A DNA stretch of 64,000 bases from an uncultured Pseudomonadales bacterium (GTDB lineage: Bacteria > Patescibacteriota > Microgenomatia > UBA1400 > PJMF01). Each line of letters starts with the position of its first letter. The stretch's first letter is position 1. The position numbers and the translations under genes were made by a program. This document shows positions 9,198 through 52,173 of the stretch, in pieces. Under the pieces are notes generated by a model that saw only the letters and a list, made by a program, of their open reading frames with translations, did not search any database and had not been told where the DNA came from. The stretch spans positions 57,718-121,717 of the forward strand of contig CAYOQI010000004.1 in NCBI GenBank assembly GCA_964406075.1, written 5' to 3'.

Positions 9198-9303
9198 AAT
9201 TCTCTACTTCATTGATCATTTTTAAAAAAAACATAGATCTTTAGAATTTTTTTAGTTATTACCCACTAGTTTCGTACACGCTTTCCGCTGTTATACTACA
9301 AGT

Positions 9304-21834: not shown

Positions 21835-22746
21835 TTACTTTTCTCGAGAAGGTTTGACTTCATACCCTCTTCCATCACTGATAATTTCAATGTGTCCATG
21901 TTGGCTTGTTGTGTATATTTTGATATTTCTATATCGAAGTATATCAATTACTCGAGTGTGAGGATGCCCAAAACTATTGTTTTTGCCCACTCCCATCAAT
22001 GCAGTTTCGGGTCTGGATGCCATGATGAATTCCTCATGTGTTGAGTTTTTAGAGCCGTGGTGGGATACTTTTATTACATCGATGTCCTTTATCACATGCT
22101 CTCTTGTTAGTGATAACTCAATCTCACTACTGATGTCACCAGCAGACAGCATCCTGAACTCCCCATATCCCACATAGCCAGATACAGAAAGGTCATTATC
22201 ATTTTTTTTACCTTTGTTTTTTACCATTCGATTTGGGTCTTGTTCTTGTTCGGTCTTTTTAAAAACAGAAATATCTTCTACCTCTGGCCAGATACTTAGA
22301 AAAGTCACGTCCGTTTCTCCATTTTCAATGGTTATTTTCTTTCCTTGAGTAAGTGTATGAGTCTCTATCTGGTATTTTTTTATTATTTCTTCAATTGCTT
22401 TACTGAGTTCTGTGGGCTCCCATGGTGGATTGCGAAAAATAACACCAACTTTATATGAAGTAACTATCGATTTAATCCCCGCAGCATGATCTGCATCATC
22501 ATGCGTTAATACTATTACTTCAATATTCCTGTCCCAAAATGGCATGAATTCCCCAAGACAGTCCAATACAGCGTCACTTGGTCCGGTATCAATCAATAGT
22601 TGATGAAAATGCAGATTGATAAGTATCGCATCTCCTTGGCCGACATCACACATGACCACATGAAGTTTATCATCAGGCCACTTCCACCAAATTAAAAAAA
22701 ACAGAAGTATTAATCCAATCAATAGTACATACAGAGCCTTTTTCAT
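21835..22746 (-). CDS. metallo-beta-lactamase fold protein corresponding to the ComEC C-terminal domain (split ComEC)
   Basis: An N-terminal TM segment is followed by VMCDVGQGDAILI, LTHDDADHAAG (HxHxDH-like) and VSHHGSKNS. Its start overlaps the stop of the comEC core gene by 4 nt. Confidence 0.8.
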   Translation of the reverse strand: MKKALYVLLIGLILLFFLIWWKWPDDKLHVVMCDVGQGDAILINLHFHQLLIDTGPSDAVLDCLGEFMPFWDRNIEVIVLTHDDADHAAGIKSIVTSYKVGVIFRNPPWEPTELSKAIEEIIKKYQIETHTLTQGKKITIENGETDVTFLSIWPEVEDISVFKKTEQEQDPNRMVKNKGKKNDNDLSVSGYVGYGEFRMLSAGDISSEIELSLTREHVIKDIDVIKVSHHGSKNSTHEEFIMASRPETALMGVGKNNSFGHPHTRVIDILRYRNIKIYTTSQHGHIEIISDGRGYEVKPSREK

Positions 22747-24254: not shown

Positions 24255-24865
24255 AAAGAAATCTGGTCTTTAATTTTTTGAAAAATACTTTCAGACAGAA
24301 CTTTCTTAGAAACTAACTCTTCAATCGAAGAATATGGGCGGTTTTCGATAATATTATTCGCTCTCGACTCACCAACACCTTCCAATGTATCAAGTTCCCC
24401 TAGTGTTGCAGAGTTAATACTAATTTTGGAAGAGTTTTTTTGAATAGAGCTCTGACGAGCTGACTCGGAGGAAGATGGAATATAAATTTTCTGTTGATCT
24501 TGAATGACTTCAGCCAAATTGATTTGCTGGGCAATATAAACAGCATCTGCATGAGAATTCCACCCACCAGCAAGTGCAATTGCATCTTTTACTCGACTAC
24601 CTTCAGACAAAGTATATACTCCTGGTTTTTGGACTGCGCCACTTATATCCACTGTTATTTTACTTGTGACTTGAGTGCTTATTTCCTCTTTCACATCTGT
24701 ATCAGTAACAGTAATACTGTCATTCGTTGATCCAACAGCCCTGAGTTGTACAAAACCGAATCCAAATCCGCCTAAGCCAAGCAGGATGAGCAAAAGAGAC
24801 CAGATCGGAGGGAGGGTTGAAAAGAATGAAGAGGACGGATGAACAGAATCACCAGAATCTTCCAT
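24251..24865 (-). CDS. comEA: ComEA DNA receptor (TM + SLBB + helix-hairpin-helix)
   Basis: A TM anchor is followed by VQKPGVYTLSEGSRVKDAIALAGG (SLBB-like) and a C-terminal INSATLGELDTLEGVGESRANNIIENRPYSSIEEL (HhH_3). Confidence 0.8.
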   Translation of the reverse strand: MEDSGDSVHPSSSFFSTLPPIWSLLLILLGLGGFGFGFVQLRAVGSTNDSITVTDTDVKEEISTQVTSKITVDISGAVQKPGVYTLSEGSRVKDAIALAGGWNSHADAVYIAQQINLAEVIQDQQKIYIPSSSESARQSSIQKNSSKISINSATLGELDTLEGVGESRANNIIENRPYSSIEELVSKKVLSESIFQKIKDQISL

Positions 24866-34902: not shown

Positions 34903-35838
<936 letters not shown>

Positions 35839-36676: not shown

Positions 36677-36706
36677 TTGACACCATCAGGTAAAAAATGC
36701 CTTAAT
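36677..36706 (+). promoter_or_regulatory. candidate sigma70-type promoter for the giant gene
   Basis: A consensus -35 TTGACA (36677-36682) is followed by an 18-nt spacer and CTTAAT (36701-36706), about 65 nt upstream of the ATG at 36772. The -10 match is only 4/6. Confidence 0.25.
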
Positions 36707-36771
36707 GAAGTTGGACAAAAAATGTGACAATTGCTCTTAAAATGTCCCACATTTCGTAAGAACGTAAAAAA

Positions 36772-39700
36772 ATGATTCCCAGTGATCTGCCCCCACTAGT
36801 CTCCATTCATGAAGCTGCAAAGTTTCTTAAAGTTTCGACAAAAACTTTACGTCGTTGGGAAGATCGACACATTTTGTTACCAGCTCGAACTTCTGGCGGA
36901 CACCGAAGATATGATCTCAACGAGATCAAGGCCTTCAAAAAACAAAAGTATTCCAGTGGCTCAGTCGTTCATCAAACAGTACTCCCACTTGCAACAGTTA
37001 AACCACTTGAATCAAAAGTGGTTGACCAAACAGATATTCTTCAAGTTTCCAAACCACTCATCATCAAACCCATTGATCATTTTCCGTTAAAAACACCGAA
37101 AGTAACTGCATACAAGCCATTCCCAGAGACAATTACGAAAGTAAAAAAAACATTTGAGTTTCCTTCATTCCAAGTTAGAAACAACATTCCTCCTCAGGTC
37201 GAAATTCCCACAGAGAAAATAACGGATTTCCCTATTCCAACCACTCCACCTTCTTGGGTGTCTGTCTCAATCGTGTTGGCTTTTTTCTTTATTTCAGCTG
37301 CAGCATTCAGTATTCAAGGTTTCTTCAAGCCTCTAGTTGCAAAACATCCAGTCCTAAGTGAAATTGCGTATTCCCTCGAAAAGAGATTGGCAATAAATGT
37401 TTTTCCTAAAAAAGAAGTGATGATTGTTCAGGCTAACGATAGCAAAGTCTTGGGAGAACACTCCAGCTTAGATTTTTTAAAATTTAATATTAATGTCGAG
37501 TCTTCTTTTCGCGAGTTTGCGAACTTCCTCTCAGATGTCAATGTCGAAGGAAATGCCACGGTCAGTGGAATTTTAAGTGTGAACTCCGGCTCACTTCAAA
37601 CAACTTCTGAAACAGCTCAAGTTTTTGAAAACGCTTCTACTCTCTCAATTGCTGCGAACACTGGCACCACAACAGTGAACAACTCACTAAACGTGGGTGG
37701 AAATTTAACAGTAATTGGTTTGATAAATGATATTGCCGGTACTCTCAATCTTTCCGGTAATACTTTGACTTCAACTGGTGATCTAGTTATTGATCCTGGC
37801 GGAGGTGGTGTTTCGATTGGAGATGCCACTCCAGGAATTATAGATATGACAGATGGAGATTTTTTTGTTTCAGGCGATGTAGAAATTGACGGCATTTTAT
37901 ACGCACCAACTGCAAATATATCAGGCACTGCGAGTATCGGCACTGTCTTGGTGAATTCCGACAGTATCAATGACTTTACTGGAACAGGCTTGACTGTCTC
38001 TGATGGAGCTCTTCAAACCACAATTGGCACATCGGTTTCTTCCTCTGAAATTGAGAATGACACAATTTTGGAAGAAGATCTTAAAGTCTCAAATGATGCG
38101 GTAAATGGTTATGCTCTTACCTATGATAATTCGACCGGCGGATTCACTTGGACAGATATTGCATCCAGTCAAGTTTGGATCGATGGTGGCTCAGTCTACT
38201 ATCAAGCCACGACCACCGATGATGTGGTGATTGGAGGTACTTCCAGCTTGGGTAAACTCTCGGTCGATGGGGATAGTGATGAAATCCAACTCGTAGTTCA
38301 AGGCAATGGGACGCAAACATCAAACATCTTCGTAGTTGAAGACTCCAGTGGGACAGATCTTTTTGTGGTGAACAATACTGGAAGCATCACCATTGCGTCT
38401 GGCCAAGATCTCACCATTGGGTCGATTGGATTGAATGATGTCGGAACAGATAATGTCACTTCTGGAGCATCACTTATCGGAGTGTTTGATGAATTCACTA
38501 ACTCCTCAGCTACGACACTACAAGATGTCCTCGATGATTTTGACGCTGCTATTGGTGGTGGAGCTTCAAAGTGGGCTCAAGATACTGGCTTTGTTTACCT
38601 AGCAAGTACGACTGACGACATCGTTGTCGGTGGTGACACAATAGCTAATGGTTCTTTGTATTTTGATGAATCTGCGGGAAGTCTGTATCTCGGAACTAAT
38701 GAGGCTTTGAACGGCTCACTTACTCTCTACTCTTCAGGAGCAGGGATAACTGACCCTACGATTACCGCAGATGCTACAGGAAATGCGAATATCACTACCT
38801 CTGCCACAGCCTTAGTAAATATATTAGCGGGTAATTTGAAAGTGGGTAATGGCGCGCCCACTCAGACCTTAAATGGTGAAGATGCCTATGTCGAAGGCAC
38901 GCTTGAAGTTGATGGGATACTCTACGCTGGTTCTGCCACTACAGCCTTAACCGTAGCAAGCGGACTGATCGATGCTGATGCAATTGCTTTAACTCCAACC
39001 ACTGAGGGATTAAGTGGTATCTCATCAGGCTCAGGTTTAGCGGTATACAGCGACACACTTTCTCTTCTCCAAGGTTGTGGTGATGGTCAAGTTTTGAAGT
39101 GGAACGAAACAAATGATTCATGGGAATGTGCAAATGATACCGGCGCTTCTTTTGCCGTGGTAAACATTGAGAACAATGATGTTGCAGTCGGGAGCAATGT
39201 CGATTCCATTGATTTCTCTACTGATTTCTTAGTCACTGCTTCCCCATCAAACGAAGCCAATGTTGCAATCGCCGATGACATTTTAAACTTCACAGAATTC
39301 TCTGATGCCCTTACCTTAGATGCCGCTACCACCATCACCAATTCTTTAGCCGGCAACTTGACAATCGACCTCACTTCAACCGGTGATTTCGTCATTGCAG
39401 ATGGTGGAGTTGCCTTCTTTACCTTTACTGATGGTGGTGCTTTAACTCAGGCTGGAAGCGGTCAAATAACCTTGACTGGAAACGTTGATGCTACAAATGG
39501 TCTTGATATAACAGGCGCTTCCCTAACGGTTGGTGGTGCAAATGCCACGATCACCACAGGTGGAGCGTTAACATTGGCATCAACAATTACAGCAGCGACC
39601 GACGAGACCATTAACGGCGTTGATATCAATGCCGGTACCGTTTCAGATGTTGTGAATTTAACTATTAATTCAGGTGGTGACTTAACCATTGGTTCAATCG

Positions 39701-42700
39701 GTTTGAATGATGTGGGTTCAGACAACATCACTTCCGGTGCTTCCTTAGTGGGAGTGTTTGATGAATTCACCAATTCAAGTGCAACAACTGTTCAAGACGT
39801 CTTAGATGATCTCGATGCAGCAATTGGTGCTGGTGCAAGTAAATGGACTGACTCTGGTACTGTTACCTACCTTACTGACACGACTGACAGTATTACGATT
39901 GGGAGTTCAACCGAACTTGGTAAACTTGCAGTCGATGGAGATGCTGATGAAGTTCAGTTATTAGTTCAAGGTAATGGAACCCAGACCAATGCCCTTGCAA
40001 TTTTTGAAGATTCAACAGGTGCTGACCAATTTAGCATTAGTAATACTGGAAACGTGACGTTAGCTGGAGATTTAACAATCAGTGGTGGAAATATTACCTC
40101 TGCAACTACCTTTGATTCCACCGCAACCGTAACAGGAACATTAACAGCAAATGGCACTTTAGATGCCAATGGGATCTTCACACTTGGTGACAATGGCGAA
40201 ACCGGTGCAATTGATACTTCTGATTGGGATATTTCTGCCACCGGTGTACTCACTGGAGTGAGTGGTATTACCACTGATGGTGGATACACTCAATCAGGCG
40301 CGACCGGAAATACATTTTCAGGCAATGTCGATGCAACTTCTGGCCTTGATGTCACAGGTGCTTCTCTGACTGTCGGTGGTGCAAATGCCACGATCACTAC
40401 AGGTGGAGCGTTAACTTTAGCCTCCACAATTACAGCCAACACAGATGAAACAGTGAACGGAGTTGATATTAATGCAGGGACTGTTTCTGATGTGGTGAAT
40501 TTAACAATCAATTCTGGTGGTGACTTAACTATCGGGTCAATCGGACTCAACGATATTGGTTCAGACAACATCACTTCCGGTGCTTCTTTAGTTGGAGTCT
40601 TCGATGAGTTTACTAATTCAGATGGTCTTAATGTACAAGATGTCCTTGATGACTTTGATGCTGCTATTGGTGCAGGTTCTAGTAAATGGACAGACTCTGG
40701 TACTGTTACCTACTTAACTTCTACTACTGATGACTTAGCCGTGGGAGGATCCACTGTCCTGGCTTCCATGTTTGGCATTGATGAATCGGCAGGAAATTTC
40801 TACTTTGGCTATGACAACTCAGTTTCCCCTACCTTCAACTTTGAAGCCTCTGATGGTGATGCTGGTGAATTTGGATTTAATACCAATGACACATTCTTCT
40901 TCTCCAATGCACGAGTGGGTGTCGGAACGACCAATCCTTCAAGGTTATTACATGTAAGTGATTCTTCAGGGTCGCCCGCCATTAGAGTTACTGGTTCAGC
41001 CAGTGGTTCACCGTTTATTGAGTTCGAACAGTCAGGAAATGTTAGAGGTGTTTTTGGTTATGATAATACAACTTCGACCTTGCAACTTGCATATGGAGCG
41101 AATTTTAGTACTACCTTCCTATCACTAAATAGTTCTGGTTCTATGGGTCTTGGAACCTCTGCACCTGACGCCGCATTAGAAATCAATCATGCTACGGGTG
41201 ATAGTTTACGACTTACATACAATGACTCAAATGGTTCCGCTACCAGCTACACAGACTTCTCTCTCGCCTCTGATGGAGATTTAACAATTGATAGTGCTGG
41301 TGGTGCCATAAACCTTGGTGCAAATGATGACCTCAATATCACTGCTTCTACTGACTTAATCTTTGGAGGATCAACCTCTCTTGGTGAATCTACAGGAGCG
41401 GCTGATTCAGGAGCTTTCTTAACTGGTATTTTTGATGAATTTGATAACTCTGCTTCCTCTACAGTACAAGATGTGATTGATGATATTGATGCAGCTATTG
41501 GAAATAGAACATACACTGCTGATAACTACGTGACTGATGGTCAAACTCTGACAGCTTCCATCAATGCCCTTGATATTGCACTTGCCTCTGTTTCAGGCGG
41601 TGCGTACACAGGATGGAGTATTGACGTGGATGATGACGGAGCTGATCCAATTGCAAGTGGAGCTACGCTGAATGTTGATGCTGGAAGTAATGTGTCATTG
41701 ACCTACACAGCTGGTACCAATACGCTTTTAATTGCTGCTACTGATACAAATACTACCTACACAGCTGGGAATGATCTTGATCTTACCGGAACGGTCTTCA
41801 GCCTAGAAACCACCCTCGATTTTGTCGACACAATTAATTTAGCTGGGACAGGAACTCTCAACGGTCTTGATGCCGTTGATGCTACTGGAGAAAATACTAT
41901 TGAGGCCCTGATCTTTGATACAGATGCTGAAAGTATTACCGGAGTCTGGACGGTAGCTGACTCGACCAACTTCAGAATTGGTACCGGTGGTGACTTAACC
42001 TTCGCTCATGATGGTTCAAACTCTACTATTACTAGTACGACGGGTGACTTACTTATCGACAATACAAATGCCACCGGTTCAACCATTTTTGACCTGGGCA
42101 CAGATACTTCAGCCACTGATTTCCTTATTAGGAATGATTCTGGCACTCAACTCTTAAGCTTGAACGGTGCCGGGGCACTTCAGCTTGGAAGCAATGGTCA
42201 AGATGGTCAGTTCATCCTCTACAACGAACTAGGTGTAACAGATTACACAAACACAATTAACCCAAGTGGTTCTCAGTCCCAAAACATCACCTATACCCTA
42301 CCTCCTGATGATGGTGGCGCTGATAATTACGTTCTCACCACGGATGGAAATGGCGTATTGCAATGGGAATCCGTCACTGGTGCCGGTGGAGGAAGTGGAG
42401 ATCTGACAGATATCATTGCTGGGAACTACATTGATGTTCAAAACGCTGGTGGTCCGAGTCCTACTGTAGACTTTGATCCAACCGAACTTGAAGGAGTGAC
42501 TTGGGGTGCCTCATCTGGCGCCAGTGAACCTTTTACCTGGACGTATGATGTGACGAACTCCGGAACTGATCCTTCCATCACTTTCGCGGACAATGCCATC
42601 ACTCTCACAGCAGCAACTCTTACAGCTAGTGGTGATTTAACAATTCAAGGTGGAGACGCAACGCTTGGAATGGCTGGAACCGATGGTTCGCTCACTTTTT

Positions 42701-45700
42701 ACAATGAACTCGGAGCCACAGATAGAAGTGTTATCTTTAACGTCTCGGGATCGCAGTCAGAAGATATTGTCTACACTCTTCCTCCTGATAATGGAGCTGC
42801 TGACAACTATGTTCTTACCACTGATGGGTCAGGTGTGTTGCAGTGGGAATCAGTTTCCGGAGCTGGTGGCGGAACAGGTGATGTTACCGATATCGTTGCT
42901 GGCAACTACATTGATGTTCAAAATGCTGGTGGCCCAAGCCCAACCGTGGACTTTGATCCAACTGAACTTGAAAGTGTGACCTGGGGAGCACAAACTGGTG
43001 CTTCATTTACCTGGACGTTTAATGCTTCATCTGGCACTGATACCAGTATCGCCTTTGCGGATGGCAGTATCTCCCCCACACTCGCTGCAACTGGACTATT
43101 CAATGTCTTAACTGGAAATTTGAAGGTCGGAAATGGAACACCTGGACTTTCGCTCGATGGTGAAGATGCATATATTGAAGGCACTTTTGAAGTGGACGGC
43201 GCATCTCAATTTGATGGTGCTTTGACAACTAATGGAACGTTAACCGCAAACGGCCAGTTCACACTCGGAGATAATGGTGATACTGGGGCTATTAATACCT
43301 CAGATTGGGATATTTCTACTACTGGTAGTCTCACAGGAATTTCTGGAATTGCGAATGACGGAAGCTATACCCAAACCGGATCAAGTGCAAATGCATTTAC
43401 AGGTGTAACAACATTTAACACTGATGTTGATTTCACCTTCGCTGATACTGAAAATATTGCCATTACTAATACCGTAACAGGCACAAACGGTCTCGATCTT
43501 ATTTCTGCTATTATCACAAATCAAACTTCCTCTGGAACTCAAAGAGGTATTGTTATTTCTAATGCGAACGATGCTGCCAACGCCTCAACTGAGTCATTAA
43601 TCTTCTTAGACAATGCCGAAACTACCGCTTCTACCCTTACAGACGCAATACTCATTACTTCATCTGGTGCTGATGGTGGCATTGTCGATGCCATTGATGT
43701 TTCAGCTGGCAACATCACCAATGCGCTCAATGTCGGTGGGAATAATATCATCGGAACAACAGCAGTCATAAACTTTGATAACTTTGACATTGATGGTTCA
43801 GGAAACCTCGTAACTGCTGGAACATTAACAGCTGCCACGAATGAAACAATTAATGGGGTTGATATCAATGCTGGAACTGTTTCAGATGTGGTGAATTTAA
43901 CAATCAATTCTGGTGGTGACTTAACTATTGGTTCAATCGGTCTCAATGATGTCGGATCAGACAACATCACCTCTGGGGCTTCCCTAGTTGGCATGTTTGA
44001 TGAGTTTGATAACTCTGCGTCCACCACAGTTCAAGATGTTATTGATGACATTGATGCAGCTATCGGGAATCGAACCTACACTGCTGATAACTATGTGACT
44101 GACGGTCAGAGTTTAACCGCTTCGATTGATGCCCTTGATGTTGCTCTTGCTGCTGTCTCCGGTGGTGCGTACACGGGCTGGGATTTAGATGGTGATTCCG
44201 GAACCGCCGAAACCATTGCTAATGGCAATACGGTCAATATCCTCGGTGGCACCAATGGAATTGATACCGTCGTAAGTGCGACTGATACTTTAACTATTAA
44301 TTTAGATACTACGGAAATTGGTACAAGCACTTTTGGATCTGGATCAGGTTTTACTTGGACTTTTGACGCCGGTGCTACTGATCCCACACTTGCCTTTGCA
44401 AGTAACGCCATTACTATCGGGGGTGCTGCTACACTCAACTTTGGCGGTACTCTTGACCTCGGAACAAACACTCTCAGTGATGGCAACTTTAATGGTAACT
44501 GGGCATTTAATAGTGGAAATCTCTCCGGGATTGGAACCATCGGTGCTTCTGGTGCGATTACTGCTGCAACCGATGAGACCATTAACGGCGTTGATATTAA
44601 TGCAGGGACTGTTTCTGATGTGGTGAATTTAACAATCAATTCTGGTGGTGACTTAACTATCGGGTCAATCGGACTCAACGATATTGGTTCAGACAACATC
44701 ACTTCCGGTGCTTCTTTAGTTGGAGTCTTCGATGAGTTTACTAATTCAGATGGTCTTAATGTACAAGATGTCCTTGATGACTTTGATGCTGCTATTGGTG
44801 CAGGTTCTAGTAAATGGACAGACTCTGGTACTGTTACCTACTTAACTTCTACTACTGATGACTTAGCCGTGGGAGGATCCACTGTCCTGGCTTCCATGTT
44901 TGGCATTGATGAATCGGCAGGAAATTTCTACTTTGGCTATGACAACTCAGTTTCCCCTACCTTCAACTTTGAAGCCTCTGATGGTGATGCCGGAGAGTTT
45001 GGTTTTAATACCAGTGATTCCTTCTTCTTTAGTAACGCCTTAGTTGGTATTGGAACTGCAAGTCCAAGCGAACAGCTAGAAGTTGGAGGAAATATCGAGC
45101 TAACTGCTGCAGTTCCTCGTCTTGCGTTTGACAATACGAACGGTGATAACGATTGGTATATACAAGCTTCAGCCACTGGCTTTCAGTTTAGAAACTCATC
45201 TGATAACGTCAACTACCTTTTGATCAATCAAACAGGTCTTGTAAGCATTGGTGGAGATGATTCCCCTGATTATCTGCTAGAACTTTATGATGCCACAGCC
45301 ACTCCTACATTTGCCTTATCTGATGATGATGTTACACACGGACTCACAACACTTGCTCAGACAGATGTGTTTTCTCATCTAACATCACTCTCAACCACAG
45401 CCGGAGGTGCAGAACTTACCACAATCAGTGACACAGATGCTCAAGCACTATCGATCCGAGGCGTGATTGGTTCTACTGACCCGACCGATACGACTCCAGC
45501 AGTTAAGCTTGTAGGTGCAAAGAGTAATGGAACAACCGGTATGGCAGATCTTGGTGCAGCAGAAACAGTATTCCAAGTTGCAAACAATGATGACGCTTCA
45601 GCATTAACAATACTTGGGAATGGAAATGTTGGGATCGGTGATACAACGCCAGCTGCACTTCTGACCGTTGGAACATCAGATGCATTACAAATTGATGCTT

Positions 45701-48700
45701 CTGGAAATGTTGTGACGACTGGAACAGTAACTGCAGCTACGAATGAAACAATTAATGGAGTTGATATTTCAGCAGGAACGGTTTCCGATGTGGTGAATTT
45801 AACAATTAACTCAGGTGGTGACTTAACTATTGGTTCAATTGGTTTGAATGATGTTGGAAGTGACAACATCACTTCTGGAGCATCGCTCGTTGGTGTGTTT
45901 GATGAGTTCACCAACTCAAGCGCAACAACAGTTCAAGATGTCTTAGATGATCTCGATGCAGCAATTGGTGCTGGGGCAAGTAAATGGACTGATGGTGGAG
46001 CTATTACCTACTTAACAGCAACAACAGATGACCTCGCTGTCGGTGCTTCCAACACTCTCACTGCTCCTTTCTCTGTCGATGTCTCTGCCAACTTAGTCAG
46101 AATCGGTACTGGTTCAACAGCCAATGCTCAACTTGACATGTATGCTTCAGATGGCGACACAGGAAGTCTTATTTACAATACTTCAGATCAATTTAACTTC
46201 ACCGGTGGTGATGTCTTGATTGGTCAGGCATTAACAGTAACTGGAACAACTACCGCCAATGGTGCCTTTGATGCCAATGGTCAGTTCGATCTTGGAGATG
46301 GTGGCGATGCTGGAACAATTTCTGCAACTACGCTAGACATTGATGCCACAGGTGCTCTTCAAATTAACTCCTCAGGTGGAGCTATTGGGATTGGTAATGA
46401 TGCTGTTGCTCAAGCAATTAACATTGGCACTGGTGCTGCAGCTCGAACCATCACTATGGGAAACAATACCGGTGCTTCAGCGCTCCAACTTACCTCAGGA
46501 ACTGGCGACATTACTTTGACATCAACTGACGATATCTTATTCACTCCTACTGACGATATGCTCGCAACCTTTGCCGCAGGCTCAGCATTTACTATAGATG
46601 CTGCAACCACTGATACGACAGTAACCGGCGGAGTTCTTGCCCTTGATGTCGATGCTGGAAATGCGGCTGTGATTGGAATTGATTTAGATTTTTCTCAATC
46701 AAGTGGAGCAACGACAGGGACAGATGCTATTGGTCAAAACATCGCTGTTTCAGCCAATGATGCAGATGGTGATGTATTTGGACTTTCAATCCGATCAAAT
46801 GCCACAGCCAATGCTGGAGTGGGTTCTTATGAGGCATTAATTCGACTAATTAATGCTGAAGATACCGCCTCGGCTGTAACAGACGCTATTTTAATTGACT
46901 CAACTTCAGGCGTAGACGGTGACATCATTGATGCGATCGATGTTTCTGATGCAAATATCACCAACGCTTTGAATGTTGGCGCCAACAATATTATTGGTAC
47001 TTCAGCTGTTATCAATTTCTCAAGCTTTGATGTAGATGCTTCAGGAAATACGATAATTGGTGGAACACTCGACGTCACTGGAATTTCAACTCTAGTTGGC
47101 AACTTGAACGCAAACGGTGGTCTTGATGTCGATAACGCATTCGTTGTAGCGGATGGTGGAGTGTTAACCACCTCTCAAACTGCTAACTTTGATGGCACAG
47201 CTGACTTTGATGGTGCTGCCGACTTCTCCGCTGGAGTTACAAACTCTGCAGGTGAATTCTTAGTTTCAGGTGGAAACCTCCAGCTCAATGACAATATTAA
47301 TTTGACGGTTGGAACTGGTGATGACTTAACTATCGTTCACAATGGAACCAACACACTTCTCACTTCCGTAACGGGTGACTTAATCTTTGATAATACTTTA
47401 GTAACTGGTTCTACTATCTTTGATCTTGGAACCGATACCTCTGCAACTGACTTCTTAATTCGAAACAATTCTGGAACTCAACTTCTCAGCATGAACGGTG
47501 CTGGTGCATTCCAACTTGGATCAAATGGTCAAGATGGCCAGTTCATTCTCTATAACGAACTGGGTGGAACTGACTACACAAATACAATTAACCCAAGTGG
47601 TTCTCAATCTCAAAATATTACCTATACCCTCCCTCCAGACGACGGCGGACTAAACTACGTTCTTACCTCAGATGGTAGTGGTGTACTCACCTGGCAGTCT
47701 GTCGGTGGAATCGGAGCTGGTGGAGATTTAACTGACATTGTTGCCGGAAACTACATTGATGTCCAAAATGCTACCGGGCCAAGTCCTACAATAGATTTCG
47801 ATCCAACCGAACTCGAAACCGTGACCTGGGGTGCCCAAGCTGGATCTTCCTTTGCTTGGACATTTAACGCGTCAAGTGGCACTGATCCTGTCATGACATT
47901 TGCCGATAATGCCATCACTCTTACAGCTGCTACCACTACTCTCTCTGGAGATCTTGCGATCAATGGTGGAAATGTCACAACCGCGACCACCTTTGACTCA
48001 ACACTGACAGCAACAGGGACACTTACAGCAAATGGAGCCCTTGATGCTAATGGTCAGTTCGATCTTGGAGATGGTGGCGATGCTGGAACAATTTCTGCAA
48101 CTACGCTAGACATTGATGCCACAGGTGCTCTTCAAATTAACTCCTCAGGTGGAGCTATTGGGATTGGTAATGATGCTGTTGCTCAAGCAATTAACATTGG
48201 CACTGGTGCTGCAGCCAGAACAATCACAGTGGGAAACAATACCGGTGCCTCCGCACTCCAACTCACCTCAGGAACCGGAGACATCAACTTGAATTCTGCC
48301 GATGATATTTTCCTGAGTCCAAGTGATGACCTTACGGCCTTCATCACCGCCGTTGGTCAATTTACTATTGATGCGGCAACAATTGATAGTCAGAATACCC
48401 TCGGCGCATTTAGACTTGATATTGATAGCTCTACATCAGGGACTATTGGATTCTTGACCAACTTTAGAGCTATTGATGATGACGCAGCCGACATTCTCTA
48501 CGCCAATCGTACTGATGTCACAATTCAAGATGATACCACTGCTTCTGACACCGTCTATGGAAATTATATTAGTCTCATTCAGAATGACACCACACCAGCA
48601 ACAACATATGGCTTAGCGGTAGTAGCAGAAGATGCTGGTACTTCCCCTGTCTCTACTGGAATCTTAATTGAAAACTTACAAGCAACTGATATTGATCTCA

Positions 48701-51700
48701 CCGATGGTCTGTTGATCAGAGCAACAACAGATGGTTCATTAGTAGATGCTATTGATGCGTCAGATGCAGAAATTACCAATGCCTTAAATATTGGGGCAAA
48801 CACAATCTTAGGAACAACTGGGGTTATCGATTTCACTAACTTTGATGTTGCAGCTACAGGTGCGCTCTCACTCTCTACCGCCGGAAATACCTCAGCCTCC
48901 TTCACCAGAACATCTGCTGGTCAATGGATGGCATTCAACGATGGCACCGATACTTGGGGTATTTACAACACCGCTGGTAGTCCTGAAGCATCGTTGACCG
49001 CAAATACTGGAGCCCTCGCAATGGATACAACCAATGGAACTCTCTATGTCAAAACTGATGATGGCGATAACACAGGGTGGGTAAACCTCGCTTCCGGTGC
49101 TTCTTCACCTTGGACTGATTCAGGGACGACTTCCTACTTAACCGATACTACAGATGAAGTAGTGATTGGTGGAGCTTCCCCACTTTCCAGTGCCAAATTT
49201 TCAATCGATGGAGATGCGGATCAAACTCAACTACTTGTCCAAGGCAATGCAACTCAAACCACAGACCTCGCAATCTTTGAGAACTCAGCGGGAGCAGATC
49301 AATTCAACTTCAGTAATACTGGAAACTTGATTGCAGCTGGAGACATTACTGCCACTGGTGGAACATTCAACGGTGCATCTGGAGAAAGTATTGACCTCGG
49401 AGTCGCAAGCTCAGATGTCCTCACCTTCACGACTGGAGCCTCAACTGAACTACTCCTTTCCACAACTAACTTAACAGCTGGAACAGCTGAAGGAAACTCA
49501 CTTGGATCTGCAACAGTAGAATGGGAACAACTCTTCCTTGGTGATAACAATGGAATTTCCTTTGGTCTCGATCAAGATTGGTCATTTGGTTATGATGAAG
49601 CTACAGATGATCGACTTGAATTAATCACAGCAGGAACGTCTGGAATGTTAATCCAATCCGCAACGGCTACTGGCAACGGATTAGCACTTACTTTTGATTC
49701 ACTCTCAACCGGTGAAGGACTCTACTTGTCTTCTACTTCAACAGCATTAACATCAGGTGGACATCTTGGTCTCTTCGAGTGGAATCCTGGAAGTGCCAGT
49801 TCGACCACCGCAGATCTGTTTAGTATCAATATTGGAAGTAACGCCACTGTGCTGGGAGATATCTTTAATGTTCAAGATAACGGCTCTGATCTTTTCTCCG
49901 TTGGAGAAGCTCAAATTACCTCTGCTCTTCCCCACTCATTTACCGCAGCCGGCGATGTATCAGTGGCCTACGATCTCCAATTTACCAATCAAACTGCTAG
50001 TTATTTGAAAACATACGGCCCACTTCAGATCGAAGCTGGTGAATCGTTTGAATCAAATAACTTAACGATAAAAACATATAACTCAGGTGACGTCGTCATT
50101 GATCTACCAGCCACCGGCCAAATGATCGTACAAGGTGCGTTCTCAATTGGAGATCAGCAAACACTTCCTGCCGGAACCACACCTTCCGTAGCCGGTGGTT
50201 CACACTACATTGGAAACGCGAATGGATTGATCACCAACTTCACCAGTGGAACTGCAGGTCAGATCCTAGTACTTGAGTTCGATGGAACTTCGACTGACCT
50301 CGACTGTAGCACTGCCGGACCGATTCGTTGTGGAAGTACAGATATCACTACCCAACAAGCAGCCGGTGACATCATTACCTTCATTTATGACGGAACAAAC
50401 TGGAACATGATCGAGTATGTAGCACTGGACGCAGACTCTACAGCTGGAGCTGACCTTGCCGAGTACTACCCCGCTTCTGAACACTTAGAGCCAGGTGACA
50501 TCGTCAGTATTGATTCAACTCAGCCAGTGATGGTGGAAAAATCTCACGAGTCTCATCGTCAACGAATAATGGGTATCGTATCAAGTGATCCAGGATTATT
50601 ACTTGGTGAAGAAGCGGATAATTCTTACCCCATCGCCTTGGCAGGGCGTGTGCATGTAAAAATGTCAGAATCATCTGAAGCTATTCAACCCGGCGACTTA
50701 GTTGGAGTTTCTCAGGAAACCGGAAAAGCCAAAAAAGTAAACTCTGGATATACAGTTGGCCGTGCTCTTGAATCATGGGATCCAAACTCTGGCGATCGAG
50801 ATGTGGTGGTATTTGTGAACTTATCATATATTCCCGTAGATTTAGCTTTAAATAATGATGGTCAAGTCAGCTCAAGCTACTCACTTATTACGACGGATTC
50901 TCTTGAGTACGCGATTCGCGATCTGAACAATGGACAGGATATTCAACAAACCTTAGTCTTGGCCGAATCATTGATTGGACGACTGGAAACCGGAAGTATA
51001 GTTACTCGAGAATTACAAGCTCAAAGTATCGAAACTGAAGACTTCCTCACGAATAACGCCACAGTATCTGGACAACTCAATGCCAACTCTGCAGAAATTA
51101 ACTCATTGAGATTTGAAACCGCCACAGTGGCGGGTCAACTTTTCTTATCAGATGGACGAAGTGTCGGCTCATTACTGGATGAAAATGATGCCTACTTAGC
51201 TTCCCTCTCAGCTCAGACCCAACAACTCGCACAATCATTTAGTGAGCAAACTGTCCCAGGCACATCCACAGCCTTTGATGAATTCCTCGCTCAACTGACA
51301 GGTACAGAAGACGCTTCTCTCTCAGCTGCCTTAGCAGCAATTCAGAATCAAGAAGATATTGAACTCGATGCAGAAAGCATGGTCCTGGCACCAGACGCAG
51401 TCTTTGTCAAAGAATACTTGAATGTCACCGGCTTCACTCAATTAACTACGGCCAGCATTTCTCAATCACTTACTGTGGGAGATGGTTTACTCTTAACTCA
51501 AGATACGATCGCCACAGCAGAGGAAACACTCTATATCCAACCAACTGCCGGATCACTGAACTTACTCGCCGGTTTGATGACACTCACTCCAGATGGAAAC
51601 GTCACGATTAACGGTGATCTGACTGTTACTGGAATCGCTTCCATTACTGATGGAGTGAAAACTAGTCAGCTCTCTCCAAATGACTTTACGCAAGATTTGA

Positions 51701-52173
51701 CAGTCAAACTTGCATCAGAATCAGCCTCAGTCTTGGGCACAACTGATAGCTCAGAGTTCCAGATTTTGAACGCCAGTAACTCAGCAGTGGCCAGTATCGA
51801 TGCATCTGGATCCGCCAAGTTCTCTAGCATTTCAACTGAAGGCTTAGTCTTGAAACAACCTCAGTCAGAGGCATCATCCTCTGCTCAACGACAAGCTGAA
51901 ATTGCTCGCAAACAAACAGCGGGACAATTAACTCTTGAGGCTGGTGAAGTCACAATGGAAATTGAGAATGATAATGTTGAAGACGACAGCTTGATTTATC
52001 TCACTGCAACTTCAGATACTCAAAACCAAGTCATGTATGTTGGAGAGAAAGAAACCTGTGCATTTGCTGGCCCAACCTGTCAAACCAGCTTCACCGTAAA
52101 AATTAATCAACCGATTGCTACAGACATTAAGTTCAACTTCTGGATTGTAAATGTCTCAAAACAACAGCCGTAA
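36772..52173 (+). CDS. giant (5133 aa) surface repeat protein: N-terminal MerR/excisionase-type HTH, single TM anchor, Thr/Gly/Asp/Asn-rich repetitive ectodomain
   Basis: An uninterrupted 15.4-kb ORF. Residues 10-57 (SIHEAAKFLKVSTKTLRRWEDRHILLPARTSGGHRRYDLNEIKAF) match the MerR/HTH_17 pattern. Residues ~161-185 (WVSVSIVLAFFFISAAAFSIQGFF) form the only TM segment. At least 7 copies of a TINSGGDLTIGSIGLNDVGSDNITSGASLVGVFDEFTNS..VQDVLDD.DAAIG module lie between ~38400 and 45980. Three copies of a GSTIFDLGTDTSATDFLIRN...ITYTLPPDDG..YVLT.DG.GVL.W module also occur. There is almost no Cys. Confidence 0.9.
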   Translation: MIPSDLPPLVSIHEAAKFLKVSTKTLRRWEDRHILLPARTSGGHRRYDLNEIKAFKKQKYSSGSVVHQTVLPLATVKPLESKVVDQTDILQVSKPLIIKPIDHFPLKTPKVTAYKPFPETITKVKKTFEFPSFQVRNNIPPQVEIPTEKITDFPIPTTPPSWVSVSIVLAFFFISAAAFSIQGFFKPLVAKHPVLSEIAYSLEKRLAINVFPKKEVMIVQANDSKVLGEHSSLDFLKFNINVESSFREFANFLSDVNVEGNATVSGILSVNSGSLQTTSETAQVFENASTLSIAANTGTTTVNNSLNVGGNLTVIGLINDIAGTLNLSGNTLTSTGDLVIDPGGGGVSIGDATPGIIDMTDGDFFVSGDVEIDGILYAPTANISGTASIGTVLVNSDSINDFTGTGLTVSDGALQTTIGTSVSSSEIENDTILEEDLKVSNDAVNGYALTYDNSTGGFTWTDIASSQVWIDGGSVYYQATTTDDVVIGGTSSLGKLSVDGDSDEIQLVVQGNGTQTSNIFVVEDSSGTDLFVVNNTGSITIASGQDLTIGSIGLNDVGTDNVTSGASLIGVFDEFTNSSATTLQDVLDDFDAAIGGGASKWAQDTGFVYLASTTDDIVVGGDTIANGSLYFDESAGSLYLGTNEALNGSLTLYSSGAGITDPTITADATGNANITTSATALVNILAGNLKVGNGAPTQTLNGEDAYVEGTLEVDGILYAGSATTALTVASGLIDADAIALTPTTEGLSGISSGSGLAVYSDTLSLLQGCGDGQVLKWNETNDSWECANDTGASFAVVNIENNDVAVGSNVDSIDFSTDFLVTASPSNEANVAIADDILNFTEFSDALTLDAATTITNSLAGNLTIDLTSTGDFVIADGGVAFFTFTDGGALTQAGSGQITLTGNVDATNGLDITGASLTVGGANATITTGGALTLASTITAATDETINGVDINAGTVSDVVNLTINSGGDLTIGSIGLNDVGSDNITSGASLVGVFDEFTNSSATTVQDVLDDLDAAIGAGASKWTDSGTVTYLTDTTDSITIGSSTELGKLAVDGDADEVQLLVQGNGTQTNALAIFEDSTGADQFSISNTGNVTLAGDLTISGGNITSATTFDSTATVTGTLTANGTLDANGIFTLGDNGETGAIDTSDWDISATGVLTGVSGITTDGGYTQSGATGNTFSGNVDATSGLDVTGASLTVGGANATITTGGALTLASTITANTDETVNGVDINAGTVSDVVNLTINSGGDLTIGSIGLNDIGSDNITSGASLVGVFDEFTNSDGLNVQDVLDDFDAAIGAGSSKWTDSGTVTYLTSTTDDLAVGGSTVLASMFGIDESAGNFYFGYDNSVSPTFNFEASDGDAGEFGFNTNDTFFFSNARVGVGTTNPSRLLHVSDSSGSPAIRVTGSASGSPFIEFEQSGNVRGVFGYDNTTSTLQLAYGANFSTTFLSLNSSGSMGLGTSAPDAALEINHATGDSLRLTYNDSNGSATSYTDFSLASDGDLTIDSAGGAINLGANDDLNITASTDLIFGGSTSLGESTGAADSGAFLTGIFDEFDNSASSTVQDVIDDIDAAIGNRTYTADNYVTDGQTLTASINALDIALASVSGGAYTGWSIDVDDDGADPIASGATLNVDAGSNVSLTYTAGTNTLLIAATDTNTTYTAGNDLDLTGTVFSLETTLDFVDTINLAGTGTLNGLDAVDATGENTIEALIFDTDAESITGVWTVADSTNFRIGTGGDLTFAHDGSNSTITSTTGDLLIDNTNATGSTIFDLGTDTSATDFLIRNDSGTQLLSLNGAGALQLGSNGQDGQFILYNELGVTDYTNTINPSGSQSQNITYTLPPDDGGADNYVLTTDGNGVLQWESVTGAGGGSGDLTDIIAGNYIDVQNAGGPSPTVDFDPTELEGVTWGASSGASEPFTWTYDVTNSGTDPSITFADNAITLTAATLTASGDLTIQGGDATLGMAGTDGSLTFYNELGATDRSVIFNVSGSQSEDIVYTLPPDNGAADNYVLTTDGSGVLQWESVSGAGGGTGDVTDIVAGNYIDVQNAGGPSPTVDFDPTELESVTWGAQTGASFTWTFNASSGTDTSIAFADGSISPTLAATGLFNVLTGNLKVGNGTPGLSLDGEDAYIEGTFEVDGASQFDGALTTNGTLTANGQFTLGDNGDTGAINTSDWDISTTGSLTGISGIANDGSYTQTGSSANAFTGVTTFNTDVDFTFADTENIAITNTVTGTNGLDLISAIITNQTSSGTQRGIVISNANDAANASTESLIFLDNAETTASTLTDAILITSSGADGGIVDAIDVSAGNITNALNVGGNNIIGTTAVINFDNFDIDGSGNLVTAGTLTAATNETINGVDINAGTVSDVVNLTINSGGDLTIGSIGLNDVGSDNITSGASLVGMFDEFDNSASTTVQDVIDDIDAAIGNRTYTADNYVTDGQSLTASIDALDVALAAVSGGAYTGWDLDGDSGTAETIANGNTVNILGGTNGIDTVVSATDTLTINLDTTEIGTSTFGSGSGFTWTFDAGATDPTLAFASNAITIGGAATLNFGGTLDLGTNTLSDGNFNGNWAFNSGNLSGIGTIGASGAITAATDETINGVDINAGTVSDVVNLTINSGGDLTIGSIGLNDIGSDNITSGASLVGVFDEFTNSDGLNVQDVLDDFDAAIGAGSSKWTDSGTVTYLTSTTDDLAVGGSTVLASMFGIDESAGNFYFGYDNSVSPTFNFEASDGDAGEFGFNTSDSFFFSNALVGIGTASPSEQLEVGGNIELTAAVPRLAFDNTNGDNDWYIQASATGFQFRNSSDNVNYLLINQTGLVSIGGDDSPDYLLELYDATATPTFALSDDDVTHGLTTLAQTDVFSHLTSLSTTAGGAELTTISDTDAQALSIRGVIGSTDPTDTTPAVKLVGAKSNGTTGMADLGAAETVFQVANNDDASALTILGNGNVGIGDTTPAALLTVGTSDALQIDASGNVVTTGTVTAATNETINGVDISAGTVSDVVNLTINSGGDLTIGSIGLNDVGSDNITSGASLVGVFDEFTNSSATTVQDVLDDLDAAIGAGASKWTDGGAITYLTATTDDLAVGASNTLTAPFSVDVSANLVRIGTGSTANAQLDMYASDGDTGSLIYNTSDQFNFTGGDVLIGQALTVTGTTTANGAFDANGQFDLGDGGDAGTISATTLDIDATGALQINSSGGAIGIGNDAVAQAINIGTGAAARTITMGNNTGASALQLTSGTGDITLTSTDDILFTPTDDMLATFAAGSAFTIDAATTDTTVTGGVLALDVDAGNAAVIGIDLDFSQSSGATTGTDAIGQNIAVSANDADGDVFGLSIRSNATANAGVGSYEALIRLINAEDTASAVTDAILIDSTSGVDGDIIDAIDVSDANITNALNVGANNIIGTSAVINFSSFDVDASGNTIIGGTLDVTGISTLVGNLNANGGLDVDNAFVVADGGVLTTSQTANFDGTADFDGAADFSAGVTNSAGEFLVSGGNLQLNDNINLTVGTGDDLTIVHNGTNTLLTSVTGDLIFDNTLVTGSTIFDLGTDTSATDFLIRNNSGTQLLSMNGAGAFQLGSNGQDGQFILYNELGGTDYTNTINPSGSQSQNITYTLPPDDGGLNYVLTSDGSGVLTWQSVGGIGAGGDLTDIVAGNYIDVQNATGPSPTIDFDPTELETVTWGAQAGSSFAWTFNASSGTDPVMTFADNAITLTAATTTLSGDLAINGGNVTTATTFDSTLTATGTLTANGALDANGQFDLGDGGDAGTISATTLDIDATGALQINSSGGAIGIGNDAVAQAINIGTGAAARTITVGNNTGASALQLTSGTGDINLNSADDIFLSPSDDLTAFITAVGQFTIDAATIDSQNTLGAFRLDIDSSTSGTIGFLTNFRAIDDDAADILYANRTDVTIQDDTTASDTVYGNYISLIQNDTTPATTYGLAVVAEDAGTSPVSTGILIENLQATDIDLTDGLLIRATTDGSLVDAIDASDAEITNALNIGANTILGTTGVIDFTNFDVAATGALSLSTAGNTSASFTRTSAGQWMAFNDGTDTWGIYNTAGSPEASLTANTGALAMDTTNGTLYVKTDDGDNTGWVNLASGASSPWTDSGTTSYLTDTTDEVVIGGASPLSSAKFSIDGDADQTQLLVQGNATQTTDLAIFENSAGADQFNFSNTGNLIAAGDITATGGTFNGASGESIDLGVASSDVLTFTTGASTELLLSTTNLTAGTAEGNSLGSATVEWEQLFLGDNNGISFGLDQDWSFGYDEATDDRLELITAGTSGMLIQSATATGNGLALTFDSLSTGEGLYLSSTSTALTSGGHLGLFEWNPGSASSTTADLFSINIGSNATVLGDIFNVQDNGSDLFSVGEAQITSALPHSFTAAGDVSVAYDLQFTNQTASYLKTYGPLQIEAGESFESNNLTIKTYNSGDVVIDLPATGQMIVQGAFSIGDQQTLPAGTTPSVAGGSHYIGNANGLITNFTSGTAGQILVLEFDGTSTDLDCSTAGPIRCGSTDITTQQAAGDIITFIYDGTNWNMIEYVALDADSTAGADLAEYYPASEHLEPGDIVSIDSTQPVMVEKSHESHRQRIMGIVSSDPGLLLGEEADNSYPIALAGRVHVKMSESSEAIQPGDLVGVSQETGKAKKVNSGYTVGRALESWDPNSGDRDVVVFVNLSYIPVDLALNNDGQVSSSYSLITTDSLEYAIRDLNNGQDIQQTLVLAESLIGRLETGSIVTRELQAQSIETEDFLTNNATVSGQLNANSAEINSLRFETATVAGQLFLSDGRSVGSLLDENDAYLASLSAQTQQLAQSFSEQTVPGTSTAFDEFLAQLTGTEDASLSAALAAIQNQEDIELDAESMVLAPDAVFVKEYLNVTGFTQLTTASISQSLTVGDGLLLTQDTIATAEETLYIQPTAGSLNLLAGLMTLTPDGNVTINGDLTVTGIASITDGVKTSQLSPNDFTQDLTVKLASESASVLGTTDSSEFQILNASNSAVASIDASGSAKFSSISTEGLVLKQPQSEASSSAQRQAEIARKQTAGQLTLEAGEVTMEIENDNVEDDSLIYLTATSDTQNQVMYVGEKETCAFAGPTCQTSFTVKINQPIATDIKFNFWIVNVSKQQP
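40462..40862 (+). repeat. 401-bp perfect intragenic repeat, copy A
   Basis: By eye it is identical base for base to 44590..44990 (offset 4128 bp). Identity stops abruptly at both ends. Confidence 0.85.
44590..44990 (+). repeat. 401-bp perfect intragenic repeat, copy B
   Basis: See copy A. The flanking sequence is only about 70-85% similar. Confidence 0.85.
46276..46442 (+). repeat. 167-bp perfect intragenic repeat, copy A
   Basis: Identical to 48049..48215 (offset 1773 bp). The following ~100 nt are about 85% similar. Confidence 0.85.
48049..48215 (+). repeat. 167-bp perfect intragenic repeat, copy B
   Basis: See copy A. Confidence 0.85.

Follow-up and report, generated by a model that had tools for sequence, protein, structure and literature searches.

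Which kind of protein is encoded by a single gene of 15.4 kb in an uncultured, ultra-small bacterium among the Patescibacteria (also called the candidate phyla radiation, or CPR), and what could such a bacterium use it for? The gene lies in a stretch of 64,000 nucleotides from a Microgenomates-type organism (the window; positions 57,718 to 121,717 of contig CAYOQI010000004.1, GenBank assembly GCA_964406075.1), and the coordinates given here are positions of this window. To our knowledge, little is known about how Patescibacteria find and hold their hosts beyond the type IV pili of a few cultured Saccharibacteria. Our analyses suggest, with a probability of roughly 0.6, that the gene encodes a giant membrane-anchored adhesin of Microgenomates, which resembles phage tail fibres, is probably homotrimeric and carries a cytoplasmic helix-turn-helix (HTH) domain that probably binds the leader of its own gene. 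The fibre is a member of a large, previously undescribed family that probably mediates host-cell attachment. An earlier note, made from the DNA letters, had described the product as a modular fibre-like surface protein. This description held, since the protein has one transmembrane helix and an acidic, all-beta ectodomain of about 4950 residues, while the HTH, the chaperone cassette and the conserved operon partners had been overlooked.

The open reading frame (ORF) spans 36772..52173 (+), starts with ATG and runs through 5133 codons to one terminal stop. It is a single intact ORF, as the earlier note had read it, and takes up 24% of the window; an identical 5133-aa sequence, on a 135-kb contig, is already present in the public NCBI protein collection. 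Residue counts agreed with the biased composition that had been noticed (T 13.3%, G 11.8%, A 10.2%, S 9.7%, D 9.3% and N 6.9%, together 61%) and with the scarcity of Cys (6 residues, 0.12%), Trp (0.74%) and basic residues (K+R 2.0%, His 0.4%).

Internal repetition extends from aa ~250 to ~4360, and the N-terminal 250 and C-terminal ~770 residues are unique. On the basis of these repeats, we delimited a mosaic shaft of interleaved module families at 37519..49623 (+) (aa ~250-4284). The repeat families listed previously were all recovered. Module 1 (..GASL.G.FDEF[TD]NS....QDV[LI]DD.DAAIG) has 7 copies within nt 38413-45990, at aa 565/572, 989, 1270, 1547, 2402, 2646 and 3036. Pattern search and DNA repeat comparison placed copies 1, 2, 3, 5, 6 and 7 at 38413..38577, 39685..39849, 40528..40692, 43924..44088, 44656..44820 and 45826..45990 (all +), respectively; the divergent copy 4 (GAFLTGIFDEFDNS; 41359..41523 (+)) was found by a regular expression and its coordinates were set in register with the other copies. 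Module 2, with a YTLPPD[DN]G core, occurs three times (aa 1841, 2001 and 3618). The same two approaches located full-length copies 1 (GSTIFDLGTDTS...YTLPPDDG...; 41978..42617 (+)) and 3 (47309..47933 (+)) and the partial copy 2 (42748..43024 (+)). Two shorter motifs, DGD[AS]D..QL.VQGN (aa 499, 1055 and 4146) and TANG..DANG..F.LGD.G (aa 1125, 3161 and 3752), are each present in three copies. Noise prevented a clean module map from being drawn by self-BLAST when no composition correction was applied.

The DNA of repeat copies is 73-97% identical over 150-640 nt. For most pairs, DNA identity is 73-85% and protein identity 86-94%, with differences that are mostly synonymous. Accordingly low ratios of nonsynonymous to synonymous substitution rates (dN/dS 0.05-0.10; dS 0.9-2.1 for most pairs, Nei-Gojobori) were obtained, indicating that the duplications are old and that the modules are under strong purifying selection.

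A scan of the whole protein in four pieces against Pfam, NCBIfam and PHROG returned only the HTH and one weak tail-fibre PHROG (E 6e-4), and phmmer searches of PDB with single sequences (the shaft halves and the C-terminus) gave no significant match. Over the whole protein, the families YadA anchor/Hep_Hag/HIM, RTX, cadherin, Big and VCBS had no Pfam or NCBIfam match at E<=0.01; judged by family matches, the protein does not appear to be a trimeric autotransporter, an RTX adhesin or a Bap-type giant adhesin. Segments of the module-2 type are found in proteins of 400-700 aa that end in Peptidase_S74. The structure of a single module, whose prediction had been proposed earlier, was modelled for module 2 as an AlphaFold monomer: the fold came out all-beta, with low confidence (predicted local distance difference test, pLDDT, 63). 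A fold search with this model gave no significant match, the best being a Bdellovibrio fibre (8ond, E 0.4) and T4 gp34. A beta-helical shaft is plausible.

The C-terminal cassette and the fibre family

The C-terminal ~850 residues form a conserved cassette of three parts, A, B and C, which was found in 78 species-representative genome loci. These loci were gathered with a 5-sequence alignment of the cassette (loci and homologous proteins carry our own L and P numbers). Part A (49624..50451 (+), aa 4285-4560; ALPHxFTAAGDVSxAYDLxFTNQTAS...AGESFESNNLT) is 37-63% identical to relatives in the 78 loci. Part B (50452..50871 (+), aa 4561-4700) was identified by profile and fold match as a putative intramolecular chaperone and autoproteolysis domain of the phi29 gp12 type. 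Its predicted cleavage site lies between A4560 and D4561, at the sequence DLAEYY, whose D-x-A-E motif is conserved; out of 32 family sequences, at least 90% retain D4561 itself. A family profile matched PDB entry 3gqh, in which the C-terminal domain of the phi29 pre-neck appendage (tailspike gp12) was crystallised on its own (E 2.5e-4), and aligned from chain residue 1 (DFAEYFES vs DLAEYYPAS), which we take to be the residue exposed by self-cleavage of gp12 (D692). A second match of this profile was to the chaperone domain of the tailspike Dpo31 (PDB 28nb, E 0.025).

Structure predictions pointed in the same direction. AlphaFold2 modelled aa ~4560-4690 with pLDDT >90, and Foldseek aligned part B with BFVD models of a 'Preneck appendage protein' (template modelling score 0.65-0.66, root-mean-square deviation 2.3-2.9 A, E 1e-10 to 2e-9). 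In PDB, part B also matched phage cement/decoration proteins and tailspike C-terminal domains, and a Phage_cement_2 Pfam match stayed below threshold (E 0.0021). The fold matches of the cassette in PDB and BFVD were all to phage structural proteins. In the homologue P0012, Peptidase_G2 scored 26.0 bits. Profile and model together thus indicate that part B is homologous to the autochaperone domain of phi29 gp12 and shares its fold. Part C (50872..52170 (+), aa 4701-5133) starts with a coiled-coil-like helical segment, continues with repeats rich in beta structure and ends in a beta-sandwich. The homologues P0001, P0004, P0007, P0011 and P0015 share it; in the model, helices occupy aa ~4799-4861 and the final ~80 residues have pLDDT >83. 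With Foldseek, part C matched the C-terminal domains of K1 lyase and of the Pam1 tailspike, and homologues end in K1-lyase_C.

The domain of phi29 gp12 (PDB 3GQH, 3SUC; MEROPS G2, PF11962) and part B are homologous beta-barrels with a common D-[FL]-A-E-Y-[FY] start, and by sequence the latter is a distant member of the gp12/G2 kind. The setting differs. The phage protein gp12 is an 854-aa virion protein that folds in the cytoplasm and whose chaperone is formed by the last 163 residues, whereas part B is predicted to be extracellular, is followed by 433 residues and belongs to a membrane-anchored cellular protein. By analogy with gp12, part B may cut itself before Asp4561.

Other members of the family carry different units of phage type. 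The window protein has neither a Peptidase_S74 (PF13884) match nor the SD.R.K motif; S74 is present only in relatives, at a position equivalent to part B (P0022, P0023, P0160 and P0200). Relatives have Peptidase_S74 instead of part B or add K1-lyase_C, collagen triple-helix repeats, an H-type lectin (H_lectin) or BppL_N, and these domains, each characteristic of phage receptor-binding proteins that form trimers, indicate a trimeric phage-fibre nature. In phage tail fibres and tailspikes with Peptidase_S74 chaperones, such as K1F endosialidase and T5 pb1, the C-terminal chaperone enforces folding of a trimeric beta-helix (PMC4690869). The chaperone logic would be shared with these proteins and S74 occurs in the relatives, although the window protein itself lacks it.

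The closest relative, P0050 (locus L022), is 4167 aa long and stands next to a LamG protein that shares 67% identity with the one in the window. It contains 4 copies of module 1 compared to 7, and 1 ITNALN module compared to 3, and it has a different B unit: at aa ~3350-3560 the D-x-A-E motif is absent and part B is replaced by another unit (…SFNAFTGSHYAWLDG…GDYLISTD…). These differences indicate that module gain and loss and cassette swapping are ongoing, and that the folding or cleavage unit is exchangeable between near relatives.

In an exhaustive HMMER search with aa 930-2100, 2497 cluster representatives passed E<=1e-3, of which 119 also passed E<=1e-30, and a large share were 2000-7954 aa long. 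Relatives of 2000-8000 aa are carried by dozens of species, which, along with the synonymous bias between repeat copies, shows that the gene is real. The cassette loci come mostly from metagenome-assembled genomes of Woese-, Ames-, Gottesman- and Chisholmbacteria, WWE3 and the 'Patescibacteria group'. In the searchable literature, we found no description of this fibre family and no paper joining Peptidase_G2 or the pre-neck appendage with CPR. Part A was also present in bins labelled Micrarchaeia archaeon (L049), Bdellovibrionales (L074) and Anaerolineaceae (L073); this could be due to horizontal transfer between episymbiont or predator lineages or to binning contamination. Many records (L001-L003, L007, L009, L011, L013, L014, L021, L022 and others) are titled 'uncultured Gammaproteobacteria' or 'Pseudomonadales' yet carry a Patescibacteria-type locus, and their titles look like mislabelled placeholders.

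The nearest known cellular analogue is the MAT (mosaic adhesive trimer) fibre of Bdellovibrio bacteriovorus, for example Bd3182, Bd2133 and Bd2439 (PMC10769870). MAT proteins have ~600-1400 aa, a cleaved signal peptide, a conserved beta-rich N-terminal domain of ~130 aa, and S74 chaperones or none (PMC10769870). Their shafts are homotrimeric beta-helices with capping loops. Both they and the window protein appear to be cell-encoded, mosaic fibres resembling phage tail fibres in bacteria that live on bacteria (here an epibiotic lifestyle is expected). Taking the relatives of the window protein into account, both groups also have shafts built from modules and C-terminal units that can be exchanged, self-cleaving chaperone domains among them; some members of each have lectin-type tips. 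Unlike MAT proteins, the window protein has 5133 aa, an N-terminus made of an HTH and a transmembrane signal-anchor, and a G2-type chaperone that does not stand at the very end. No significant sequence or fold similarity was detected between the MAT structures and the window protein (8ojn, E 0.3; 8ond, E 0.4).

The N-terminal helix-turn-helix and the leader

The protein opens with an HTH of the MerR/HTH_17 type (36799..36948 (+), aa 10-59), predicted to be cytoplasmic, which exceeded the Pfam cut-offs of MerR (PF00376; 38.6 bits, cut-off 28.2, E 9.4e-10), MerR_1 (PF13411; 36.0 vs 21.6 bits) and HTH_17 (PF12728; 32.2 vs 27 bits). Compared to canonical MerR regulators, it covers only positions 1-47 of the 69 in the MerR_1 profile and then continues into a Pro/Lys-rich linker and the transmembrane helix; by its sequence, it does not appear to be a canonical MerR transcription factor with a dimerisation coiled coil and an effector domain. 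The NCBIfam equivalogs CueR, HspR and BldC were all far below their cut-offs. The nearest NCBIfam model was the minimal BldC type (E 4.8e-8, 32.7 bits vs a cut-off of 77), so that the domain resembles minimal MerR proteins of the BldC/excisionase type but falls below the BldC cut-off. With 53-68% identity to relatives, the HTH is the best conserved part of the N-terminus, and DNA-contact motifs typical of MerR and excisionases are kept.

The linker, read from the translation, comprises ~100 aa (36949..37254 (+), aa 60-161) and leads to a single transmembrane helix of the signal-anchor type (37255..37329 (+), aa ~162-186), which provides the sole 19-residue Kyte-Doolittle window above 1.6 in 5133 aa. 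The N-terminal side of this helix carries 25 K+R vs 15 D+E, in agreement with the positive-inside rule, and the remainder of the protein is strongly acidic. One transmembrane helix and a positive N-terminal side predict a type-II membrane protein, with the DNA-binding domain inside and ~4950 residues outside.

This architecture is shared within the family. Among the related loci, an HTH followed by a transmembrane helix (aa ~80-180) opens 12 cassette-bearing ORFs with an intact 5′ end, 2 of which have tandem HTHs, and out of the 59 representative homologues with 2000 aa or more, 24 showed the HTH-transmembrane-fibre order. A search with the N-terminal 260 aa yielded only HTH matches and short N-terminal fragments of the fibre family; all of these fragments showed the HTH, the linker and the transmembrane helix, followed by a common juxtamembrane shaft motif. 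In some relatives, a plain N-terminal transmembrane helix or another small N-terminal domain replaces the HTH. In L049 and L057, the small domain that stands before the transmembrane helix, where the HTH would be, had no match; a likeness of these two N-termini to integrase-SAM domains was dropped, as Pfam gave no support.

We then looked at the DNA upstream of the gene. The leader (36677..36771 (+)) starts with a conserved TTGACA hexamer (36677-36682) and contains, downstream of it, three candidate operator boxes read from the sequence: TTGGACAA at 36711-36718 (+), TGTGACAA at 36723-36730 (+) and ATGTCCCA, with reverse complement TGGGACAT, at 36742-36749. Upstream of 13 HTH-fibre genes, the motif TTRGACAW occurred 15 times within 120 nt, compared to 0.133 per kb elsewhere in the same sequences. 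This represents a ~70-fold enrichment, and only 2% of AT-rich control windows had at least one copy. The boxes are mostly paired, in inverted orientation in L004, L015 and L042 and in direct orientation in L016, L019, L007 and L023, and lie downstream of the conserved TTGACA. In 4 relatives lacking the HTH, TTRGACAW was absent within 200 nt upstream. The collagen-type loci with a double HTH (L014, L056 and L080) have a different leader element of ~30 nt (AAAyCCATGCAAACnnTAnTCATTTnAG), so the type of leader element co-varies with the type of HTH. Scans of the flanks for sigma-70 promoters and terminators were uninformative. The box pair suggests that the tethered HTH may act in autoregulation.

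By its sequence, the HTH-transmembrane-ectodomain layout fits the class of membrane-tethered regulators represented by ToxR. Regulators of the ToxR/CadC type likewise consist of an N-terminal cytoplasmic DNA-binding domain, one transmembrane helix and an extracytoplasmic domain. Unlike theirs, the HTH of the window protein is of the MerR type rather than an OmpR/PhoB winged helix, the putative sensor is a fibre of ~4950 aa, and DNA binding is only predicted. The combination in one polypeptide of a DNA-binding domain, a transmembrane helix and a phage-type chaperone domain of the trimerising, self-cleaving kind also recalls eukaryotic MYRF (myelin regulatory factor). The ICA domain of MYRF is flanked by the DNA-binding domain on one side and the transmembrane helix on the other, so that cleavage frees the transcription factor. 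The window chaperone, unlike that of MYRF, is at the far extracellular end, so its cleavage cannot release the HTH. MYRF, a transcription factor bound to the membrane whose S74-like ICA domain derives from phages, is cited in PMC10769870 (its reference 15).

Proposed function and competing explanations

Taken together, these elements can be arranged into a tentative mechanism. The single transmembrane helix would anchor the protein in the cytoplasmic membrane with its N-terminus inside and its C-terminus outside. The ~4950 acidic residues, rich in Thr, Gly, Ser, Asp and Asn, would be exported and would probably fold from the C-terminus into a homotrimeric fibre of the phage-tail-fibre type. 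In this process, the C-terminal cassette would nucleate folding, with the phi29-gp12-type (MEROPS G2) chaperone at its core probably cutting itself before Asp4561. The shaft would be a mosaic of duplicated and shuffled modules, the number of which varies even among close relatives. Estimated from the per-residue length of phage long tail fibres, the fibre could be up to ~0.2 um long, which is about a cell diameter. Together with a giant protein with LamG lectin domains that would be co-transcribed from the downstream gene, the fibre would most likely make contact with host or partner cells and keep hold of them, as an epibiotic lifestyle would lead one to expect. An adhesin function is our reading of this arrangement. 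The MerR/BldC-like HTH, tethered to the membrane by its flexible linker of ~100 aa, most plausibly binds the TTRGACAW pair of the leader, which would result in autoregulation or in signalling from the surface to the DNA.

Several results weigh against this proposal. The TTRGACAW box was derived post hoc from these leaders and the species are related, and the independent single-HTH locus L079 has only a variant box. The shaft modules had no match in Pfam, NCBIfam, PHROG or PDB sequences, and monomer AlphaFold models of the shaft were of low confidence. In a tblastn search against cultured phages, module 2, the sole shaft module tried, found no relatives. The cassette gave one weak match in the same kind of search (Agrobacterium jumbo phage Atu_ph07, E 2e-4, 29% of the query), and a scan of IMG/VR viral contigs with the distal cassette found no relatives. 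Phage relatives being this scarce, the link to phages is a distant one, which depends on the C-terminal cassette and the domains found in relatives. As regards the chaperone, the window protein reached 16.2 bits with Peptidase_G2 (PF11962), below the cut-off of 25 (E 0.0072). The domain is not terminal either, and since 433 residues (4701-5133) come after it, unlike in phi29 gp12, the protein may remain uncleaved, or a cut may have some different purpose. Moreover, we take gp12 cleavage to require ATP, which is unavailable outside the cell. Finally, the distal cassette is conserved rather than variable, unlike a typical receptor-binding tip.

The same fibre could also carry an HTH that does not regulate. 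The domain would then serve as a plug or topogenic domain that folds fast in the cytoplasm and keeps the N-terminus of the signal-anchor inside, or as a docking site for another protein, and the boxes would serve another regulator or the promoter. This is somewhat unlikely, although it would account well for an HTH reduced to its core, without the MerR dimerisation helix or effector domain, for its replacement by a plain transmembrane helix or another small domain in some relatives, and for the missing exact box in L079; conservation of the HTH above the rest of the N-terminus, with its DNA-contact motifs, the tandem HTHs of some relatives and the change of leader element with the HTH type argue for a role at DNA. 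At the other extreme, and rather unlikely in our view, the protein could be a contact-sensing membrane-tethered transcription factor, in which the trimerised fibre would join three HTHs on the paired TTRGACAW boxes, and possibly at other sites, so that fibre folding, tension or host engagement would be read out directly at the DNA. If this were true, one polypeptide would link host attachment to gene expression or nucleoid positioning in ultra-small episymbionts, and it would have arisen when a DNA-binding domain was fused to a receptor-binding fibre derived from phages. It is improbable, in turn, that the HTH, linker and transmembrane helix constitute a very long cleavable signal, where a signal peptidase cut (between ..ISAAA and FS..) would free the fibre to a surface layer (S-layer), sheath or matrix and leave a stub of ~180 aa as a membrane regulator that reports export. 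An Ala-rich AAA motif does lie at the outer end of the transmembrane helix, the composition is like that of S-layer or matrix proteins and the ectodomain has no recognisable wall-anchoring motif. Against such a cut, no C-terminal LPXTG or other retention signal is present by which a fibre, once released, would stay on the cell, the juxtamembrane segment that follows the transmembrane helix is conserved family-wide, as though it belonged to the mature protein, and no SLH or S-layer family was matched in Pfam or NCBIfam.

Two further explanations are poorly supported. That the gene encodes the tail fibre of a domesticated prophage, a tailocin or a contractile injection system instead of a cellular appendage is very improbable. 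The chaperone domain and several domains of relatives are indeed of the phage receptor-binding-protein type, but the window is chromosomal and CPR-like, with housekeeping genes around the fibre gene (F-type ATP synthase, iPGM, LeuRS, ArgRS and Obg), together with ComEA/ComEC, a sortase, a VirD4-like ATPase and glycosyltransferases, and with no phage genes, structural ones included. The locus is also syntenic between species with only ~50% housekeeping identity, the cassette and module 2 have next to no relatives in the viral sequences searched (the weak Atu_ph07 match, none for the cassette in IMG/VR and none for module 2 in cultured phages), and an N-terminal transmembrane anchor is incompatible with attachment to a baseplate. 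Equally hard to credit, and slightly more so, is that the 15.4-kb ORF arose from repeats collapsed or expanded during assembly, the condition under which the earlier note would have withdrawn its claim. This worry is confined to a 401-nt exact direct repeat (40462..40862 (+) and 44590..44990 (+), spaced 4128 nt, with the reading frame kept), which lies within a 461-nt repeat of 97% identity and is the sole stretch where a short-read assembly could be ambiguous, its surroundings having diverged; the copy number of this unit rests on the assembly without reads. It cannot explain the gene as a whole: every other repeat pair has 73-85% DNA identity with saturated synonymous divergence, the exact copies have unique flanks, so that the sole alternative is an in-frame 4128-nt deletion leaving a fibre of 3757 aa, and independently assembled relatives share the architecture at 2000-8000 aa. 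Recent gene conversion or duplication could account for the identity of the two copies.

The locus represents a widespread conserved gene set of Microgenomates and WWE3, made up of a small membrane protein with a chaperone-type domain, the HTH-anchored giant fibre, the LamG giant and, as a candidate member, a TPR membrane protein, at a cost of ~23 kb in a genome of ~1 Mb. If the proposal of a membrane-anchored, self-regulating adhesin is right, it would extend the idea drawn from Bdellovibrio, that predators and epibionts reuse the receptor-binding architecture of phages, to a different phylum, anchor and chaperone type. Because a DNA-binding domain is fused to the fibre at its cytoplasmic end and a conserved leader motif matches it, surface-to-genome signalling becomes a directly testable hypothesis, and the tip cassette and the LamG partner could be targets for predicting host range and for labelling contacts between CPR bacteria and their hosts.

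Conserved partners and other genes of the window

Directly downstream of the fibre gene lies the LamG partner gene (52448..59968 (+)), which encodes a protein of 2506 aa with an N-terminal transmembrane helix and 8 Laminin_G_3 domains (Pfam E 6e-159). A LamG-repeat giant was found directly downstream on the same strand in 40 out of 54 related loci, often overlapping the stop codon of the fibre gene, indicating that both form a conserved gene pair. An NCBIfam match of the LamG protein to TafC was set aside, as it was below threshold and reflects only the shared LamG domain.

On the other side, a divergent gene (34903..35829 (-), with its true start probably at a Met near 35682) encodes a small membrane protein composed of a signal peptide, a beta domain and a C-terminal transmembrane hairpin. 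Its beta domain is paralogous to the chaperone domain of the fibre (BLASTP against fibre aa 4541-4726, E 5e-8), and the gene is located directly upstream, on the opposite strand, in at least 7 loci (L019, L047, L007, L042, L015, L023 and L013). The loop of its hairpin, GIEAIGRNP, bears a weak likeness to subunit c of ATP synthase (Pfam E 0.009), but helix 2 lacks an acidic residue. The gene adjoins that for iPGM, which stands between it and the ATP synthase genes.

After the LamG gene comes a gene (60143..62296 (+)) for a 717-aa TPR protein, identified by TPR family matches, with C-terminal TPRs and, by translation, a hydrophobic N-terminal region of ~480 aa that had no Pfam match. In 9 loci, a homologue stands downstream of the LamG gene. 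That this protein might glycosylate the Ser/Thr-rich fibre is pure speculation. Even Woesebacteria with an iPGM of only ~52% identity retain the order iPGM, small protein, fibre, LamG and TPR.

In the rest of the window, Rfam detected only four tRNAs. A region of ~1.2 kb (20628-21834) has the lowest GC content of the window (0.346), with no ORF of at least 80 aa and no Rfam match. Next to it, at 21835-24865 (-), three adjacent genes encode a ComEA-like protein (SLBB and HHH_3), ComEC (Competence) and a protein with a metallo-beta-lactamase fold, and are adjoined by LeuRS; in locus L080, the same ComEA/ComEC/metallo-beta-lactamase arrangement stands just upstream of the HTH-fibre gene. Lastly, 8041-12564 contains a sortase, a VirD4/TrwB-like coupling ATPase (716 aa), a VWA-domain protein and unannotated small ORFs, which may belong to the repertoire of type IV secretion or pili in Patescibacteria.

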